From Dongiaceae bacterium (lineage in GTDB: Bacteria; Pseudomonadota; Alphaproteobacteria; SHNJ01): DNA of 64,000 bases. The position numbers were made by a program, and so were the translations under genes. Positions 1-10,085 of this stretch are shown here, one piece after another; position 1 is the stretch's first letter, and each line of letters opens with the position of its first letter. The notes under the pieces are model-generated. The model worked only from the letters and a program-made list of their open reading frames with translations, searched no databases and was not told the DNA's origin. The stretch lies in assembly GCA_050182275.1 (NCBI GenBank), contig JBFXCK010000002.1, forward strand, positions 154,202 to 218,201, in the 5' to 3' direction.

Positions 1-1
1 T

Positions 2-448
2 GCTGATGATCAAAAGGCTAGAGGTTACGTAGAGGATACCTCATGGAAAGATAGAGAAAAAGGCAATAAAGGCCTTATAGTATTTGGTAGAAGTGGAATG
101 GTGTGGGATAAAGATAAGAATAAAGCCGTTCCTGATCCCGATCCCAACTATAAAGATGGCTCACCTTATTTTACTGATGATGCTACGGTATTTGAAAGTC
201 ATGGAATAGCAAAGAATTTGTATGAACTCTTGCAAATGAAGAAGGATAAAACATTTGGATATAGAGAAGGAATAGATATGTATGTTCTAATAGAAGATGT
301 TCCAATTAAAGAAGGTGTTTGTGAGAACAATATTAAATTAGGAGCAGGTGGTGGTAAACAATATTATATAGCAGATCATCAGAAAGTTTTACGTCCATGT
401 CCTCATCGGATAGATTTATACCGTGATCCTCCAGAACAGGAGAGGTGA
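2..448 (+). CDS. 3' end of a larger protein (ORF open to window start); C-terminal ~90-aa domain paralogous to the product of 1010..1648; visibly AT-rich
   Basis: Frame of the 98..448 ORF has no stop back to position 2. Shares the motif YVLxEDxxI...G(A/E)GGGxxYYIxDxxKxL with the 1010..1648 protein. Composition is much more AT-rich than the flanking genes. Confidence 0.5.
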   Translation, partial: ADDQKARGYVEDTSWKDREKGNKGLIVFGRSGMVWDKDKNKAVPDPDPNYKDGSPYFTDDATVFESHGIAKNLYELLQMKKDKTFGYREGIDMYVLIEDVPIKEGVCENNIKLGAGGGKQYYIADHQKVLRPCPHRIDLYRDPPEQER

Positions 449-451
449 TTT

Positions 452-937
452 ATGCAAGAAGTTGACGATCTAATTAATACAGGAATGTGCATTGATAGAG
501 AAACTGGAGAGATTAAATTTCCTAATAATCTTATTAATCTTATTATTGCACCCAATTTGACATTGGATAACTTTCTTAGAAAATATTCCAACTTAGTTAT
601 CGAAAAATCAACAATGGGCCCACCATGGATAAGATGTTGGATTTTACAAGAAAGATACGCCATGATGATATACTTTCATGGACAGGAGTTGGGATTGATA
701 GATTTTGGAGTTAAGCAGTCCATTAAAAAACAAGATGAAGAGAATTATTCAAAGACAGAGGAAAAAAAACTAAATGACCATTTATTGTACAGATTGCTAG
801 GCGAGCCTGACCGTCGATGGGAAGATGGCGATATTTTTTATGATTTAGGGCAGGTAAAAATTAATAGCATAACTGATGACGATCATGGCGGTGGGCCTAG
901 TATATTAATTAGATATAAAGCCTATAAGAAGCAATAA
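452..937 (+). CDS. hypothetical 161-aa protein immediately downstream (4-bp gap) of the truncated C-terminal domain; candidate immunity/partner protein
   Basis: ORF starts 4 bp after the upstream stop. AT-rich. No recognisable family. Its first 21 bp are repeated at 943..963. Confidence 0.4.
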   Translation: MQEVDDLINTGMCIDRETGEIKFPNNLINLIIAPNLTLDNFLRKYSNLVIEKSTMGPPWIRCWILQERYAMMIYFHGQELGLIDFGVKQSIKKQDEENYSKTEEKKLNDHLLYRLLGEPDRRWEDGDIFYDLGQVKINSITDDDHGGGPSILIRYKAYKKQ

Positions 938-1009
938 ATTGTATGCAAGAAGTTGACGATCTATTACTGTTTAGAAACCAATCATGTAATTAGGAGTTAA
1001 AGAAAACGT

Positions 1010-1648
1010 ATGTCAACAGACCAATCCCCAAACTACGGAACCGTCTTCGGCGCTAGGCCGGGGCAGACGGCTTTTTATATGCCGCCTGAAACTTTTTTGG
1101 TGAACAGGGATGACCGTGAAAAATTATGGCGCAGCGTTCAGCAGGATGTGAGCGATTTTCATAAAAGGTTTCTTCCCACGGTGCGGCAATATGTGTTACT
1201 GGAAGATTTGGCCATACCGGTATCTGTTGCTAAAGCCAATCCTCAGCATGGGGAAGGCGGAGGTATGGTTTATTATATATCCGACTATAAAAAATTCTTA
1301 CAGCCGATTGTTGAGCGGCAGAATTTAGACCGCATCGAGCCGCCCAGCATGGATTTGCGCGAGGTAATAGATTTTGAAATGAATATGGGCAACAAGCTGG
1401 ATTATGTAGATCATTTGCCCAATGGCAGATTAATGGGCATTTATTTAATCCAGCCGCTGCATTTTAAGCAGATGGATGGGAAGCTGGCTTTTCCTCCAAC
1501 CGTCGAACATTTTTATTGCCAAGAAAACCGTTTTTTTGCCCCCGAAGCCGGCTTCCTATGCAGTAAAACCCGCCAATTCGTCACTGGCCCTATGCCCCAT
1601 CAATATCCTCCCGCAACGCCTGTTCCACCGCTTGGAAATAGGAATTAA
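1010..1648 (+). CDS. hypothetical protein with a domain homologous to the C-terminus of the 2..448 product
   Basis: Alignable block YVLLEDLAIPVSVAKANPQHGEGGGMVYYISDYKKFL vs YVLIEDVPIKEGVCENNIKLGAGGGKQYYIADHQKVL. Normal GC. The 3' end overlaps the convergent Hpt gene. Confidence 0.5.
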   Translation: MSTDQSPNYGTVFGARPGQTAFYMPPETFLVNRDDREKLWRSVQQDVSDFHKRFLPTVRQYVLLEDLAIPVSVAKANPQHGEGGGMVYYISDYKKFLQPIVERQNLDRIEPPSMDLREVIDFEMNMGNKLDYVDHLPNGRLMGIYLIQPLHFKQMDGKLAFPPTVEHFYCQENRFFAPEAGFLCSKTRQFVTGPMPHQYPPATPVPPLGNRN

Positions 1649-1955
1649 GGCGGGCGATTTTGTCTTCGAGGGTTTTTAATTGGGGGCCGCCGTCGATGAC
1701 GGCGCGGGTGAGGGTTTCGATTTCGCGCGCCAATTCCGATAATTGCAAAGCGCCCATTTGGCGGCTGGAGGATTTGAGGGTGTGGGCGGGAGCTAAAAGC
1801 TTGGCGGCGTTTTGTTCGCGGTAGGCGCTGCAAATCACTTGGATATAAGCATGCGCATCTTCCAAATAATATTCGACCATCATGGGGAATTTGCTTTTCA
1901 TCGCCTGTTTTGCTTCTTGCACTAATTCGGGGTCGATAACGGGGGGAACGCTCAT
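1590..1955 (-). CDS. Hpt (histidine phosphotransfer) domain protein
   Basis: [12 protein letters not shown] motif typical of Hpt (HxxKG). Internal Met start at 1955 gives an ATGA overlap with the upstream hybrid kinase stop. Confidence 0.7.
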
Positions 1956-4900
1956 GTAATGCTCCTGCGGGAAGGGGAAATTTTTTCGGGAACAGCTAAC
2001 CATTTTTCCAGGATTCTTTCAATATTTGGCCGCCAGCGCGGCCGCCAAAGGGATTTGGCGATGTAATCGTCCATTCCGGCTTCAAAACAGCGTTCGATAT
2101 CGCGCTCCTCCACATTGGCGGTGAGGGCGATAATGGGGATATCGGGGTAATTCACGCTCTGCCGCCAGCTTTTAATTTGCCGCGCCGCTTCATAGCCGTC
2201 CATTTCGGGCATTTGGCAATCCATTAAAATCAGGTCGAATTCCTGATGGCGGATTTTTTCAACCGCAACCCGGCCATTTTCGGCGATTTCCAGGGTGGCG
2301 TTCATGGGTTGCAAAATCGCGCTGATGAATTCTTGGTGAATTTTATCATCCTCGACGATCAAAATACGGTGATGGTGAGAGGAAGCGGATTTAAGCCGAT
2401 AAATCGAAGCGGGTTTGCGGCGTTTTTCCTCGGCCAGCCATTTGATCAGGATTTGCCCCAAATTTTGTTTGCGCACCGGTTTGCTTAGATAATCGCTCAT
2501 GCCGGCGGAAAGGCATTTTTCGCGGTCGCCCTCCATCGCGTTGGCGGTAATAGCGATAATGGGAGTAGCGGCCAATTCCAAATTGCTGCCGGCCAGGGCG
2601 CGGATGGCCTGGGTTGCTTGATAGCCGTCCATCTCCGGCATTTGGATATCCATCAAAATCAAGTCGCATTTGCTATTGCGCAATTTTTCCAGCGCAATTT
2701 TGCCGTTTTCGGCGGTGATAACTTTGCAGCCAAAGGAACTTAAAGTATCACTGGTAAATTCGCGGTTGACGCGGTTATCTTCCACCAGCATCACGCAAGT
2801 ATTTTCGAAGAATAATTCGTCAATATCGATAGAAATGCGGTCAAGCCGCTGTTTTTCGGCGGGCAGCCATTTTACCAGGGCCTGGATAATTTGCTGCTTG
2901 CGCATTGGCTTGGAAATAAAATCGCTCATGCCGGCGGCAAAGCATTGTTCTTTGTCTTCCTTCGTTGTACTAGCGGTTAAGGCGATGATCGGCAGATGAT
3001 GGCCCTGACGGCGTAAAGTTTCGGTTGCGGCAAAGCCATCTAATTCCGGAATTAAACAATCCATGAAAATCAAATCGAATTTTTCGGTATTGGCTTTGGC
3101 AAGCGCCTCGATGCCGTTGATGGCGATGGCGACTTTACAGCCGACGCTTTCCAGAATTTCGGTGGCGAAACCCTGATTCACGCGGTTGTCTTCGACCAAC
3201 AGAATATGCGTATTTTGAAAGTTATAACTTTCCAATTGCTCTTCGCGGCGGCGTAAAGTGAGTATCCCCTCGACCGTGATTAACCCCTCGGTTTTGCCAT
3301 TGGAATAGGCTTGCCATACTTGAGAAACCGTATCGATTAAATTTTGCGCGCGCACCGGTTTGGAGAGATAGCCCGATAATCCTGCTTCTTCGAAACGTTT
3401 GGCGTAACCCTGGCCGCCGGCGGAGGTAAGAATAATTAAAGCCGTGTCGCGAATAGCGGCGTCGCTTTTAATGGTTTTAGCCAGCAATTCGCCATTCATA
3501 TCGGGCATTAAATAATCCAAAATCGCCATGTGATAGGGGCGTTGCGCCTTGGCCGCTTGACGCAGCGTCGCTAGCAAGCCTTCCGCGCTTTGTGAAATAT
3601 GGCAATCCATGCCAAGCGTGGATAATTGTTCTTGGATGAGGGAGGAGTTTTCCGCAATATCATCCAAAATCGCCACTCGCACGCCATGGACCGCGGTAGC
3701 CGGGGCGGTTTTTGGCGCGGCCTCGCCCGCCTCGCCGGTTTTTAAACTCATGGTGAACCAGAAAGTCGAGCCTTTGCCTTCTTCGCTTTCCAGGCCAATG
3801 ACGCCGCCCATCATCCCGGCCAATTGCCGGCAAATCGCCAAGCCCAAGCCGGTGCCGCCATATTTACGGGTGGTGGAAGCATCGGCCTGCTCGAATTTTT
3901 CAAAAATCTTGTTTTGCAGGTTTTGAGGAATGCCAATACCGGTATCTTGCACCGAAATTTTGATATGATTGCTGCGCGATGGCGTTTGCGGCGTGCTGAT
4001 TTCTTCGATTGTGAGAAGAACATAGCCCTTATCGGTAAATTTAACCGCATTGCTTAAAAGATTGCTGATAATTTGGCGGATGCGGTTAGGATCGCCGATA
4101 AAATAGCGCTGGGCGCCGGGTTTATAATGCACAATCAATTCGACTGCCTTTTCACGCGCGCGGACCGACATCAGTTCGGCAATATCCTCGGCTAAATGCA
4201 ATAGATCGAATTGAATGGCTTCCAATTCCATGCGGCCGGATTCAATTTTTGAAAAATCCAGCACGTCGTTTAGAATATTCAGCAAAGAATCGGCCGAATT
4301 AATAACGGTGCGGGCATATTCATGCTGTTTTTTATCGAGTGAAGTTTCCAGCAAAAGCTCGGTCATGCCGATGATGCCATTCATCGGCGTACGGATTTCA
4401 TGGCTCATGGTGGCCAGGAAATCGGATTTCATCCGGTTGGCTTTTTCGGCCTCGGCGCGGGCCTGTTCGAGGGCCACCAGCATAGTATTCAAAGATTGCG
4501 CCAGTTGGCCGATTTCATCGTTATTTTGTACGTTGGCAAAAGCGTTGATATCCCCTTCAGCGCGGCGGTACATGGTTTTTTGAATGCCCAGAATAGGTTT
4601 GAAAACGGAATGCGCTAGAATGCCGAAAAACAACCCGATTAAAACGGCCCATAGCAGGATTTGCAGGACGAAAAGGCCGGCAAGCACATTATCGATTTCT
4701 TGATAAATATCCTCTGTATTCAGCTTGACATAGATCAGAAAGTGATGGTTTTCATGGGCGGAAAGCAAAGCCTCAACCGCCTTTACCGCCTCTAAAGATG
4801 ACTCGCCCTCTTGGAGGTAGAGGGGCCGCTCCTCAGCTTCCGCCTTATGCAGTTCGAGCATGAGACCGGGGGGTATGAGCATCTCCAGCGGCGCGTCAAT

Positions 4901-5218
4901 AAAAGCCGGGTTGCTTGAAGCAACAACGGTACGATCTTCTCCTTCGGCGATGAAAATCTCTTCAATATTTTCCTCACCGCTTAGGCTTTCGATAAATTTT
5001 TGGCGAGCTTGAGGGTCATCATTGGTTTTTAATTTCATTTCAAGCGCTTTGATTAAAACCGCGGCGCGTTGCTCTATTTGCTGCTGCATGCTTTGATTGA
5101 TATAAGAATCCATCACCCAGCTCAGCGCTCCTAAAATAACGATCGCCGCCAATATCATTTGCAGCAAGAGACGGCTAATGATGGAAGTTTTATATTTGTG
5201 AAATAATCCCATAATCAT
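1952..5218 (-). CDS. hybrid sensor histidine kinase (two TM segments, periplasmic sensor, HAMP, HisKA, HATPase_c) followed by four receiver domains
   Basis: H-box [20 protein letters not shown]-boxes DTGIGIP / GGTGLGLAI. Four REC blocks (ILDD..D.LMPDMNG; [20 protein letters not shown]; [20 protein letters not shown]; [20 protein letters not shown]). Confidence 0.9.
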
Positions 5219-6183
5219 TATCCAAGGGGCGCGGAAAAAGAAACAAAGGCGGTTACTTGATTGCCGCGCGGATTATAAGAAAGCCGGTCGAAGCTAACGA
5301 TATTGGCTTGTGCGATGCCGCGGCCATGATTGTCGCCTGCGCGTTTCGGGTCGAGATGAAGATAGGAATGCCAGTCAAAACCTTTGCCCTCGTCGGTAAT
5401 AACGATAGTGATGCCGCTGCTTTCCCTGGTAAAAACCACATTCACTTTGCGTTTGGAATATTCCGGCATTTCGCCGCGGCGCAGCACTTCTTCGCGCCAA
5501 ATACCGCGCTCAACCAAAAAACCTTTTGGCCCATAGCCGATTTCCAAATTGCCATGCTCCACCGCATTGATTAAAAGTTCGGCCAAGCCCGGCAATACCC
5601 GCGAAGGATTGGGGTAACAATTGGCTAAAAAGCACGCCAAATGTTCGGCTTCAATGAGAGTATGAAAATGCAGCGCGCAATGATCAATCAAGGTAAAACT
5701 GTTACGGTGTTTTTGCAGCTCGATGCTTAATAGGCGTTGCTGTTCAGTTTCACGCAAAGCCGCGGTCAAAACCGATTTCAATATTTCTGGCAGCACCGGC
5801 TTGGTGAGATAATAAAAAACCCCTGCGTCAATCCCTTCCTTGATCTGCTCCGGCTTATCCGATCCGGTTTGCATTACGACGGGAATCCTGGCAAGCCGGT
5901 GGTTCTTTTTTATTTTGGCAATCAACTGCAAACCGTCCATTTCCGGCATTTCATGGTCGAGCAGAATCACATCAACCGCGGTTAAATCTTTGGTAAGGTG
6001 ATCATAGGCCTCGCGGCCATTACGGGCTTCGATCACTTCATGATTCATCTCCGTTAGCATATGGCTTAGCATCATCATCAAAACGCGGTCGTCTTCCACC
6101 ACCATGATTTTGCTGCTTGGCTTTGGCGCCAGGGCAATTACCGCCGTGGAATCGGCGAAGGAAGATGAAACAGGGGCGATCAT
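5218..6183 (-). CDS. response-regulator receiver fused to an RsbW-like GHKL ATPase/serine-kinase domain
   Basis: MVVEDD...[11 protein letters not shown]...LTKP receiver. C-terminal HATPase_c_2-like block (INAVEHGN...ITDEGKGFD). Stop overlaps the hybrid kinase start. Confidence 0.75.
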
Positions 6184-7971: not shown

Positions 7972-8450
7972 AAACCAAACCGCCGCAATTGGGGCCGCTC
8001 TTAGCTATTGCTGTTTTGCTTGGTGTTCTTGGCGCCGGACTGTATTACCAATCCGACTCTGAGGCCACCGTTTTTCCAGTCACGCAAATTTCTGTTCACA
8101 CCGATCAAGGCCCGCAATTATTTCAAGTGGAATTGGCCTTAACGCCGCAAGCGCAGGCGCAAGGGTTGATGTTCCGCAAACAAGTAGAGGCGGGGAAGGG
8201 AATGCTGTTTGTTTTTCCGCAAAACCAGCCGCTGTATTTTTGGATGAAAAATACCTACCTGCCCCTTGATATGATTTTCATCGATGATAAATGGTTCATC
8301 CAACACATTCACCCCAACGCCAAACCGAAAGATGAAACTTTGGTGCCATCAATGGCGCCGGCAAAATACGTCCTTGAGATTGCCGGCGGGGAGAGTGAAA
8401 GATTGGGCATTAAAGAAGGCGATCGGGTGTTGCTGGATAGGGTGCCTTAG
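7968..8450 (+). CDS. DUF192 (COG1430) family protein with signal/anchor
   Basis: MLFVFPQNQPLYFWMKNTYLPLDMIFID matches the DUF192 core. 4-bp overlap with the upstream hydrolase. Confidence 0.75.
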   Translation: MKTKPPQLGPLLAIAVLLGVLGAGLYYQSDSEATVFPVTQISVHTDQGPQLFQVELALTPQAQAQGLMFRKQVEAGKGMLFVFPQNQPLYFWMKNTYLPLDMIFIDDKWFIQHIHPNAKPKDETLVPSMAPAKYVLEIAGGESERLGIKEGDRVLLDRVP

Positions 8451-8463
8451 AAGGCTAAGCTTT

Positions 8464-9171
8464 ATGGAGAATTTTATGGAGTGGTGTAGTTTAGTAATAA
8501 AATCAGTCTTTAATACCATTTGGAGGAATATAGAAGGCATATTTCAGAGTTGGTCAGTTTTTTCTGATGTTCTTACAGCTTTTGGTACTCTGGTATTAGT
8601 TATATTGGCATTGATAGGGTTTAATGCCTGGAAACAGCAAATTTCCATGCAAAGAAAGGCAACTTTTATTGATGAATTACTTCACACGATATATGAATAT
8701 ATAGATGCTATGGGGGGGCCAGTCCAATCTGTTAGATTTATTAAATATGGTTTTGAGGCATACTCCGACACAGAAAAACTAAGGCAAAATAATAATAAAC
8801 ATGCGGGCATAATTACTTATATTAAAAAAAATGGAGAAAATGATTCTAAGCGTTTATTTGAACGTCTTAGAAATGTTCGCCCTTTTAAATCTAGGCTGCA
8901 TTTTTTGATAATTAAAGGCGGATTATTTAAATTTGAAGATTATTCAACATGTGCTACTGCTTGTAGGTCATTAACAAGTTCTTATGATCAAATAGAAGCA
9001 TTAGCAGCTATGATAAGTAGTCCTCTTATGAATTGGGAAAATCCGAAAGTTAAGGAGATGTTAGATAAGTTAGCTCTGCTGGATGCCTTAAATATAGAAA
9101 ATAATTTATCCACTAACCTCGAAATACTTATTAAGTTTATAGAATCTATTTATGGTAAGTTATTTAAATAG
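8464..9171 (+). CDS. hypothetical single-pass membrane protein (235 aa), strongly AT-rich
   Basis: True start taken at MENFMEW (8464), since the upstream part of the 295-aa ORF overlaps the DUF192 gene in another frame. One TM helix (VLTAFGTLVLVILALIGFNAW). GC is roughly one third by eye versus >50% in neighbours. Confidence 0.55.
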   Translation: MENFMEWCSLVIKSVFNTIWRNIEGIFQSWSVFSDVLTAFGTLVLVILALIGFNAWKQQISMQRKATFIDELLHTIYEYIDAMGGPVQSVRFIKYGFEAYSDTEKLRQNNNKHAGIITYIKKNGENDSKRLFERLRNVRPFKSRLHFLIIKGGLFKFEDYSTCATACRSLTSSYDQIEALAAMISSPLMNWENPKVKEMLDKLALLDALNIENNLSTNLEILIKFIESIYGKLFK

Positions 9172-9961
9172 AATCACCAAGCTCTCGTTTAATGGTCGCT
9201 AATACATCACCATATGTCTCTCTTATATTTCCTTTGGAAAATCTAATTTGTTGAATGCCCTCTAAATTGGAGAATTTTTCAACGTCTGCTTCTAATAGTA
9301 CAATGGCGCGGCTAAAACCCAGCTTTCCTTGAAATAATCCGATTTCATGAATAACATTTTGTCGAGCGCGAGATTTACCATTTGGTTGCTCGTCTTCTGC
9401 AGTTAAGACAAGAAATGCTATTGAAGATTTTGAGGCCATTTCATCAAGGATATCTCTAATAGTGTGTCCAGCTCTTGTGCCAGTTTCGTATGCCTCGATA
9501 CAATAATGATGTTGCTCTTGCAGATGATCTTTCAAGTCTCGCCACTGTTTATCATGTCCATGGCCAATAAAAACAATAGGCGGTTTTTTAGGAGTGGGCG
9601 GCGGCTGAACTATAGAGTTGTTATGATGAGACTCAAAAATAGAAAAAATTCTTTGAATATCTTGCGTTTTTGTTCCTTTGACTAATACACGAGTAGTAAA
9701 AAACGCGTCACCTGTTATGCGAAATCTAGCATCATTAAAAATGATGTCGATTGTGAACCAACTCTTACTTTTTCTATAATCTTCAAAAAATTCGTCTTCA
9801 TTATCATGTTCCCAGGTTGAATCATCTATGTGAACACTAAGTTGAGCATAAGTTTTTTGAGAGCTATTAGGTTTTGGATAAAGACTTAAGAATAAATTAA
9901 TAGCTTCCTTTAGAACTTCTACTGAAAATCTAGTATTGTTGTAATCTTTAGATCTTTGCAT
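9164..9961 (-). CDS. two-domain protein: N-terminal unknown domain (~130 aa) plus C-terminal TIR-like nucleotide-binding domain (Pfam PF10137, CAP12/PycTIR-type)
   Basis: C-terminal block PIVFIGHGHD...IAFLVLTAEDE...SRARQNVIHEIGLFQGKLGFSRAIVLLE...NLEGIQQIRF. This matches the FIGxxxE...AIxLxTxDD...RARxNVxFELGxFxGxLGxxRVxxL...PSDLxG signature of the TIR-like family. AT-rich. 3' end overlaps the convergent membrane-protein gene by 8 bp. Confidence 0.6.
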   Translation of the reverse strand: MQRSKDYNNTRFSVEVLKEAINLFLSLYPKPNSSQKTYAQLSVHIDDSTWEHDNEDEFFEDYRKSKSWFTIDIIFNDARFRITGDAFFTTRVLVKGTKTQDIQRIFSIFESHHNNSIVQPPPTPKKPPIVFIGHGHDKQWRDLKDHLQEQHHYCIEAYETGTRAGHTIRDILDEMASKSSIAFLVLTAEDEQPNGKSRARQNVIHEIGLFQGKLGFSRAIVLLEADVEKFSNLEGIQQIRFSKGNIRETYGDVLATIKRELGDSI

Positions 9962-10008
9962 GATTCAAGACTGCTATAAGGTAAATTCTTTACAAGGGTG
10001 CTTAAAAA

Positions 10009-10085
<77 letters not shown>

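Follow-up and report, generated by a model that had tools for sequence, protein, structure and literature searches.

What kind of locus opens the 64,000-nucleotide stretch of Dongiaceae bacterium DNA analysed here (the window; contig JBFXCK010000002.1 of assembly GCA_050182275.1)? Its first 1,648 nucleotides hold the end of a large open reading frame (ORF) that enters from the window edge, a 161-residue ORF directly behind it and a 212-residue ORF. A first-pass annotation made from the sequence alone had read this group as a polymorphic-toxin C-terminus with its immunity gene, and homology to a family of NADase toxins and the context of the locus both support that view. Positions 1-1648 are, in our judgement and on the evidence of sequence comparison and structure prediction, very probably the 3′ end of a polymorphic-toxin-type operon of an uncultured alphaproteobacterium.

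We compared the window with L001 (GCA_050247815.1, labelled as a Dongiaceae metagenome-assembled genome), which is 99.9% identical to it, with a sister strain (L002) and with further loci (L003, L007 and L017). The features of the region, with the evidence for each, are as follows.

2-448, forward strand: 3′ end (last 148 codons and stop) of an ankyrin-repeat protein gene, with a predicted TNT-like NAD(P)+ glycohydrolase (NADase) domain at about nucleotides 8-418 (homology, AlphaFold2 (AF2) and Foldseek)
438-445, forward strand: Shine-Dalgarno-like AGGAGAGG, 6 nucleotides before the ATG of the 161-residue ORF (sequence inspection)
451-472, forward strand: repeat copy 1, holding the start codon and first 7 codons (MQEVDDL) of the 161-residue ORF (exact 22-mer)
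452-937, forward strand: 161-residue ORF, the candidate cognate immunity gene, here called ImmA (position, homologues and co-divergence)
942-993, forward strand: repeat copy 2 (942-963), running on as a 16-codon stump ORF (943-993; identical stump in L002)
1010-1345, forward strand: N-terminal half of the 212-residue protein, an N-truncated NADase-like domain (phmmer, AF2 and Foldseek)
1346-1648, forward strand: C-terminal half of the 212-residue protein, comprising domain X (residues about 113-200) and a disordered 12-residue tail (stand-alone X genes elsewhere)

The predicted NADase domain and its ankyrin-repeat carrier

The reading frame at the window edge is open from position 2 and closes at a TGA (446-448). 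The complete gene in L001 (L001:5774-9997) encodes a 1407-residue ankyrin-repeat protein of which the window holds the last 148 residues, here called the tail; the window does therefore open inside a large ORF, as had been noted. We searched a profile built from the tail, the 212-residue protein and the two close homologues of the latter against 1.84 billion representative proteins, and found 397 relatives of the C-terminal domain at E<1e-3. The domain ends within 15 residues of the C-terminus in 144 of 146 relatives (98.6%), in proteins of 95-5016 residues, and the carriers sampled were three RHS-repeat proteins, one RES-domain protein and one PKD/SprB protein. This position at the extreme C-terminus of varied carriers bears out the proposal of a C-terminal polymorphic-toxin domain. 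Word-index searches for homologues gave just 1-3 close relatives, a tblastn search of plasmid sequences gave no match, and one relative lies on a 1.2-kb contig that offers no gene context.

The first-pass annotation had been unable to assign the domain to a known toxin fold, and the tail, the 161-residue ORF and the 212-residue ORF indeed found nothing in the Pfam, NCBIfam and PADLOC libraries. Searched against the PDB, a 70-sequence family profile matched a single chain, 6XTD_A (E 1.4e-45), which was also matched by the tail alone (phmmer, E 4.1e-6) and by a profile of the ankyrin-repeat proteins of three lineages (E 9e-12). An AF2 model of the tail (predicted local distance difference test (pLDDT) 89.8, predicted template modelling score (pTM) 0.84) gave 6xtd_A as its best Foldseek match (E 7e-10, template modelling (TM) scores 0.67/0.75). 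Ranks 2-18 were all NADases, among them Tse6, the fungal AfNADase and Tne2; TNT itself was not among the matches. The entry 6XTD is the complex of Rhs1-CT and RhsI1 from Serratia marcescens Db10, an NAD(P)+ glycohydrolase of experimentally shown activity that has been placed among the TNT-like NADases and for which the name 'Tne3' was proposed (PMC10539506). Profile and fold comparison thus give the domain an assignment, that of a TNT-like NADase.

Residues were mapped in a 147-sequence alignment, in which the PDB position plus 1318 gives the Rhs1 numbering. The equivalent positions are:

Gln1354 of Rhs1: Q4 of the tail
Tyr1359 of Rhs1: Y9 of the tail
Ser1384 of Rhs1: S54 of the tail
Phe1386 of Rhs1 (aromatic position): Y56 of the tail
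Gln1408 of Rhs1: Q78 of the tail
Arg1418 of Rhs1: R88 of the tail
Gln1452 of Rhs1 (strictly conserved, catalytic): Q120 of the tail, Q1379 of the full-length protein; codon CAA at 359-361

The Gln1452 position is kept in 146 of the 147 C-terminal toxins of the alignment. From this homology and the modelled fold, we assign the tail to the TNT-like NAD(P)+ glycohydrolases, as a predicted member of the Rhs1-CT(Db10) subgroup, and by its residues it is most likely an active NADase. Two other catalytic schemes, an ADP-ribosyltransferase with an R-S-E triad and a Cys-Glu pair ('CENN') supposedly lost in the 212-residue protein, were dropped because the 147-member family, with the consensus A-x-A-N, does not conserve the positions concerned. 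A match of one relative to ADPRTs_Tse2 (E 0.0035) fell below the cutoff and was not used.

A doubled arrangement of the domain occurs at L013:3001-5085, where a 694-residue protein (P0008) carries two NADase domains, one internal and one C-terminal after a repeated unit of about 300 residues. The 88-residue gene behind it is unrelated to ImmA or X.

On the 1407-residue protein, Pfam finds only ankyrin families, at roughly residues 200-750. A Rhs, CdiA, MafB or T6SS-type carrier had been considered; the upstream ORF does prove long rather than short, but it is an ankyrin-repeat protein and holds no recognised trafficking domain. The approximately 500 residues behind the ankyrin array comprise a conserved stretch of about 270 residues, a variable linker and the C-terminal toxin domain. 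This pre-toxin region (L001:8051-9300, full-length residues about 970-1240, between ankyrin repeats and NADase) is very strongly conserved, is common to L001, L002, L003 and a decayed locus, L007, and is marked by the motifs ELTESLHDTLVG, TETDRIMKEY, NIPDFxKLP and GGCxxxNGFT. It has no match in Pfam or the PDB, and when its alignment was searched against JGI metagenomes and against a single genome for each GTDB species, the organisms of L003 and L007 were the only ones to appear. The pre-toxin region could be a processing or translocation module.

The candidate immunity gene and exchange of the cassette

The 161-residue ORF does adjoin the toxin gene closely, as the first-pass annotation had it, although the gap measures 3 nucleotides (TTT, 449-451) and not 4. 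Because the Shine-Dalgarno-like motif sits inside the end of the toxin gene, its presence suggests translational coupling of the 161-residue ORF. Database searches with the protein (Pfam, NCBIfam, PADLOC and PDB sequences) gave no match, and its relatives had nothing above threshold in Pfam. Two ImmA profiles and the protein itself returned only chance matches from the PDB at E<=10, and this sequence comparison did not find RhsI1, Tsi6, Tni2 or IFT.

Homologues of ImmA lie 3′ of the ankyrin-NADase genes of L002, L003 (where ImmA is fused to X) and the decayed L007. A weaker relative is the first gene after an unrelated RHS-NADase gene (L014, E 4.6e-5), and a tandem pair of ImmA-like repeats of about 145 residues follows a third ankyrin-NADase gene, in L017; these repeats were recognised by eye and with MAFFT, the ImmA hidden Markov model having missed them. 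Such recurrence behind NADase toxin genes, with the tandem array of L002 described below, agrees with the proposal that the tightly coupled small ORF is an immunity gene, and the 161-residue protein is likely the cognate immunity protein, of an undescribed family.

RhsI1, Tsi6 and Tni2 each insert a basic residue into the NADase cleft (PMC10539506). A conserved loop that precedes the last strand of ImmA has the pattern D-x-[H/K/R]-G. Its third position is His in the four copies from ankyrin loci, Lys in the relative linked to RHS, Arg in one repeat of the L017 pair and Tyr in the decayed L007. On the model of His131 in RhsI1, this loop is a candidate plug for the NADase cleft.

The base composition of the region is as anomalous as had been reported. 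The first kilobase is far more AT-rich than the rest, with a GC content of 0.32-0.35 over positions 1-1000 versus 0.50 for the whole window; by gene, the values are 0.37 for the tail, 0.34 for the 161-residue ORF and 0.47 for the 212-residue gene. The block of toxin end and ImmA is AT-rich in all lineages (0.34-0.38 versus 0.44-0.50). In L001 it belongs to an AT-rich island of about 7 kb that starts directly after a tRNA gene and contains two unknown ORFs (295 and 211 residues), the ankyrin-NADase gene and ImmA. Pfam has no match for the two unknown ORFs, and neither has a homologue among the other loci compared. The edge of the island is of the kind at which genomic islands typically insert:

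L001:3574-3649, about 5.9 kb upstream of window position 1: tRNA-Glu gene at the left edge of the AT-rich island

Divergence between the sister strains locates the boundaries of exchange. Codon-wise comparison of L001 with L002, over the overlapping part of the ankyrin gene and the genes around it, gave the following synonymous divergence (dS):

Ankyrin gene, first 300 overlapping codons: dS 0-0.015
Ankyrin gene, codons 300-400: dS 0.26
Ankyrin gene, codons 400-600: dS 0-0.015
Ankyrin gene, codons 600-900: dS 0.11-0.41
Ankyrin gene, last 300 codons: dS 0.9-2.3
ImmA: dS 0.46, ratio of non-synonymous to synonymous divergence (dN/dS) 0.19
212-residue gene: dS 0.015
Histidine kinase gene: dS 0.08

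Because dS jumps there and is low around it, ImmA and the last third of the toxin gene form an allele far older than the sequence on either side, and dN/dS, at 0.07-0.24 throughout the compared regions, indicates that this allele is under purifying selection. The dS pattern shows recombinational replacement, as expected of polymorphic toxin loci. The earlier suggestion of a foreign, exchanged cassette is thus upheld by the peak in the last 300 ankyrin-gene codons, the intermediate value of ImmA and the near-identity of the next gene.

The repeat noted earlier, of 21 nucleotides at the ORF start and at 943-963, is present but one nucleotide longer: it is an exact 22-mer, TATGCAAGAAGTTGACGATCTA, at 451-472 and 942-963. 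In 100 dinucleotide-preserving shuffles of the window, the 22-mer had no match even with 3 mismatches allowed. The sister strain L002 carries three tandem ImmA paralogues (86%, 35% and 48% identical to the window copy), and this array closes with the same stump (ATGCAAGAAGTTGACGATCTA, then TTACTG..., at about 5381-5431), which lies just 5′ of the 212-residue gene in both strains. The blastn segments shared by L001 and L002 overlap exactly at the stump junction, and between the two copies of the repeat L002 is 950 bases longer. Because the L002 array ends in the same stump and the blastn segments overlap there, the 22-nucleotide repeat is the conserved 5′ end (MQEVDDL) of immunity genes.

Thus, the idea of a truncated second copy holds: in the window strain the immunity array is reduced to one copy and the stump of a lost further copy. 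Recombination between the 5′ ends of immunity genes explains copy gain and loss, and the stump is the right-hand boundary of the exchanged AT-rich block. The second ImmA paralogue of L002 (L002:4393-5377) has a frameshift caused by a 19-nucleotide tandem duplication (CTCCTGCTGATGCAAGCAA x2), but for which copies 2 and 3 would be read as one two-domain protein; the duplication reflects either a mutation that recently inactivated the gene or an error in the assembly. A promoter and terminator scan of window positions 1-2100 gave nothing informative.

The 212-residue protein and domain X

The tail domain recurs, as had been seen, in the 212-residue protein (39% identity over 62 residues, BLASTP E 4e-11), with family-profile homology spanning residues 3-139 of the tail and 14-105 of the 212-residue protein. 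The latter also matches 6XTD_A directly (phmmer, E 3.7e-7), and its confident two-domain AF2 model (pLDDT 84.8, pTM 0.73) superposes on 6xtd_A in Foldseek with E 1.6e-6 and a root-mean-square deviation of 2.2 Å over 97 columns. Its NADase-like domain begins after the segment that carries Gln1354, Tyr1359 and Asp1363, and so is without it, and has Leu56 at the Arg1418 position and Val87 (GTT, 1268-1270) at that of Gln1452. The catalytic Gln is replaced in all six X-fused proteins (V, V, V, M, K and K). To judge from these replacements, the domain is probably catalytically dead.

Domain X, about 85 residues of predicted alpha+beta fold (AF2), has no Pfam, PDB sequence or Foldseek match. It occurs as a separate gene directly after an RHS-NADase gene (L012:3813-4109) and directly after another NADase toxin gene (L015/L016, E 6.6e-22; not used in profile building), and four times in the L003 locus, in the forms ImmA-X, X-X and dead-NADase-X. 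ImmA and X are unrelated (hhalign probability 0.4%). By this distribution, X appears to be a second undescribed immunity-type domain.

Homologues of the 212-residue protein in L003, L007 and L017 are 55%, 55% and 40% identical to it, and a gene of this type always stands last, after an ankyrin-NADase gene and small ORFs, in L001/L002, L003, L017 and the decayed L007. The first-pass annotation had taken it for a native paralogue; it is no independent housekeeping copy but the conserved last gene of the operon, encoding an apparently inactive NADase-like domain with X. Could it be a decaying orphan toxin-immunity module that has lost a stop codon and does nothing by itself? Such modules are frequent (PMC10539506), and the gene's place at the 3′ end of the locus, its lost catalytic residues and an N-terminal truncation like that of orphan toxin fragments would fit. 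The tandem divergent paralogues, the stump, the truncated toxin-like fragment at the 3′ end and the recombination at conserved junctions also recall the orphan C-terminal/immunity modules and orphan immunity arrays of Rhs and contact-dependent inhibition (CDI) loci. Here, however, an in-frame fusion joins the fragment to an immunity-type domain, catalytic residues are gone, and the fragment is shared between lineages instead of being peculiar to one strain. Architecture, truncation point and gene position are the same in lineages that have no more than 37-57% identity. No copy seen has an interrupted ORF, the AF2 model is confident, and the dead domain is as conserved between lineages as X (54-56% versus 55-57% identity, and 40-44% versus 33-37%). 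We regard decay as improbable; because the dead domain is conserved as well as X, the comparison indicates that the 212-residue gene is kept by selection.

The 212-residue gene lies outside the exchanged block. Its product is most likely, from its sequence and position, an additional, allele-independent immunity or toxin-binding component. A bolder proposal, which we put forward tentatively and at somewhat less than even confidence, is that the family is a new class of toxin-derived pseudoenzyme: a dead, N-truncated NADase permanently fused to X, under purifying selection and unchanged during toxin/ImmA exchange, that would act as an allele-independent safeguard, with ImmA and X then being two further, unrelated inhibitor solutions for TNT-like NADases. 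Such a pseudoenzyme could serve as an adaptor that binds the toxin for export, as an immunity protein of broad spectrum, or as a decoy or heterodimer partner that poisons NADase, whether incoming or self.

In the decayed locus (L007/L008/L011; GCA_013558375.1 and GCA_013565695.1), the large gene is reduced to a 342-residue fragment, part of it duplicated, with neither ankyrin repeats nor NADase domain. Intact genes remain there for ImmA-X, for X alone and for dead-NADase-X, and the immunity genes thus appear to outlive the toxin.

Export, target and significance

In the mechanism that we propose, the delivered C-terminal domain would hydrolyse NAD+ and NADP+ and so stop the metabolism of the target cell, and the translationally coupled ImmA would protect the producer by binding the toxin and closing off its active-site cleft. 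Together, ImmA and the toxin end would be an AT-rich block exchanged by recombination, the 5′ ends of immunity genes supplying the homology, and the 22-nucleotide repeat and stump would be the scar of a lost downstream copy. The 212-residue protein would be a selected, non-catalytic NADase-like domain joined to X that acts as an extra, allele-independent immunity or toxin-binding component. What the comparisons show is homology, fold, residue conservation, gene order, variation of the array and the pattern of divergence; we infer the enzymatic activity, the neutralisation by ImmA or X, the export and the target. The features of polymorphic toxins found here are a C-terminal domain shared by RHS, RES, PKD/SprB and ankyrin carriers, an immunity-type gene 3 nucleotides downstream and, in the sister strain, an immunity array with a stump.

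The closest known system, Rhs1-CT/RhsI1 (6XTD; PMC10539506), resembles the locus in a toxin homologous in sequence and predicted fold, with the strictly conserved Gln and most substrate-binding residues, and in its layout, the toxin lying at the extreme C-terminus with a small gene directly after it (161 residues here, 163 in RhsI1). It differs in that the carrier here is an ankyrin-repeat protein without PAAR, RHS shell or type VI secretion system (T6SS) context, and in that the operon adds the dead-NADase-X gene. More distant are Tse6-Tsi6, Tne2-Tni2 and CpnT(TNT)-IFT, which share the palm-domain fold (Foldseek probability 1.0 for Tse6 and Tne2), and the predicted chemistry. In these pairs a small, unrelated immunity protein plugs the cleft with a basic residue, and the loop of ImmA is a candidate for such a plug. 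Sequence identity is only 9-14%, their carriers and routes are others (T6SS PAAR, type VII secretion system, outer-membrane channel), and their immunity families are unrelated.

Several observations weigh against a polymorphic-toxin operon. Within the domain, the tail has Thr at the Asp1363 position (with an adjacent Asp), Asp at the His1412 position (His in only 56% of the family) and a 19-residue insertion relative to Rhs1-CT, and it is without the PGQ motif. In the carrier, Pfam finds no PAAR, RHS, TPS, LXG or other trafficking domain, the N-terminus has no obvious signal peptide, and no secretion genes, T6SS included, lie in the 64-kb window or its flanks. The ankyrin-NADase architecture is rare, having turned up in only about three lineages, and the L001 and L002 alleles are of the same toxin family, with no change of toxin type seen. 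Neither in sequence nor as profiles could ImmA and X be matched to a known immunity protein, whether RhsI1 or another, so that their role assignment rests on gene position; the link of ImmA to an RHS toxin in L014 is weak (E 4.6e-5, from a search of a small six-frame set).

The ankyrin repeats favour a eukaryotic host as target. In M. tuberculosis, TNT depletes host NAD+, and IFT protects the producer before export. By the same logic, the protein could be a host-directed effector of a eukaryote-associated bacterium, its ankyrin repeats engaging host proteins and its NADase depleting host NAD+, with ImmA and X serving only to protect the producer before export. Ankyrin arrays are typical toxin carriers in endosymbionts and intracellular bacteria (PMC3482391), a toxin acting on a universal cofactor requires self-immunity whatever its target (PMC10539506), and no interbacterial delivery machinery was seen nearby. 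The endosymbiont ankyrin toxins with Tox-REase-8 or latrotoxin-CTD domains (PMC3482391) are similar in being giant proteins of Alphaproteobacteria with a central ankyrin array and a C-terminal toxin. Those described by Zhang et al. are, however, host-directed and free of immunity genes (PMC3482391), whereas the locus here has immunity-type genes, an array of them in the sister strain and an NADase domain. The three divergent paralogues of L002, 35-48% identical for the divergent copies, fit protection against non-self variants of competitors, and the genes of the window and flanks look like those of an ordinary chromosome (recJ, two-component systems, tRNA synthetases, scpAB, tat and other housekeeping genes), not of a reduced endosymbiont. 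A host-directed effector is in our view unlikely, though well worth keeping in mind, and the set of divergent immunity paralogues in the sister strain leads us to favour, slightly, a bacterial target over a eukaryotic host.

The lack of a secretion signal or apparatus could also point to a module that is never exported, a toxin-antitoxin or abortive-infection system in which ImmA or X restrains the NADase until a trigger such as a phage is sensed, for example via the ankyrin repeats. NAD+ depletion is a common effector mechanism of abortive infection (PMC10539506), and the locus is a tRNA-adjacent AT-rich island with a separate TIR defence islet 8 kb away. Against this, PADLOC models had no match for the tail, ImmA or the 212-residue protein at E<=1, Pfam finds no NTPase or other sensor-switch module in the 1407-residue protein, the domain family is overwhelmingly the C-terminal cargo of export-type carriers such as RHS, and tandem immunity arrays with stumps are typical of polymorphic toxin loci. 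An abortive-infection role is less likely than an exported toxin, and we rate it as improbable.

The islet is a 1.56-kb AT-rich insertion (8449-10006, GC 0.31-0.36) that adjoins a tRNA-Pro gene at about 10009-10085 and is absent from L002; it is probably a small strain-specific defence islet. The genes that follow the operon directly (Hpt, hybrid kinase and response regulator) are of ordinary signalling types, and nothing evident connects them with the toxin locus. In order of position, these neighbouring features are:

1590-2003, reverse strand: Hpt-domain gene, convergent, with a 59-nucleotide overlap with the 3′ end of the 212-residue gene
1952-5218, reverse strand: 1088-residue hybrid histidine kinase with three internally repeated receiver domains (98-nucleotide DNA repeats spaced 426-429 nucleotides)
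5218-6183, reverse strand: response regulator with an HATPase_c_2-like domain
8464-9171, forward strand: 235-residue ORF without a family match, within the 1.56-kb insertion
9164-9961, reverse strand: 265-residue TIR-domain protein (Pfam CAP12-PCTIR_TIR; PADLOC candidate family PDC-S35, E 3e-18)

In summary, the NADase family is already characterised and the basic toxin biology is not new; new here are an ankyrin carrier for an Rhs1-CT-type NADase, a dead toxin domain conserved in fusion with an immunity-type domain, and two immunity-type families not described before. Neither ImmA nor X is represented in Pfam or the PDB, and both would add to the pattern of unrelated proteins repeatedly evolved to plug the NADase cleft. 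The 22-nucleotide junction offers a defined site at which recombination could add or remove cassettes. That a dead toxin and an immunity domain should stay fused is unusual, and the protein would exemplify a toxin converted into a pseudoenzyme that protects or assists. Ankyrin-borne toxins have been thought to be host-directed and immunity-free, and an ankyrin-NADase with immunity genes could show how such proteins are exported and what they target.

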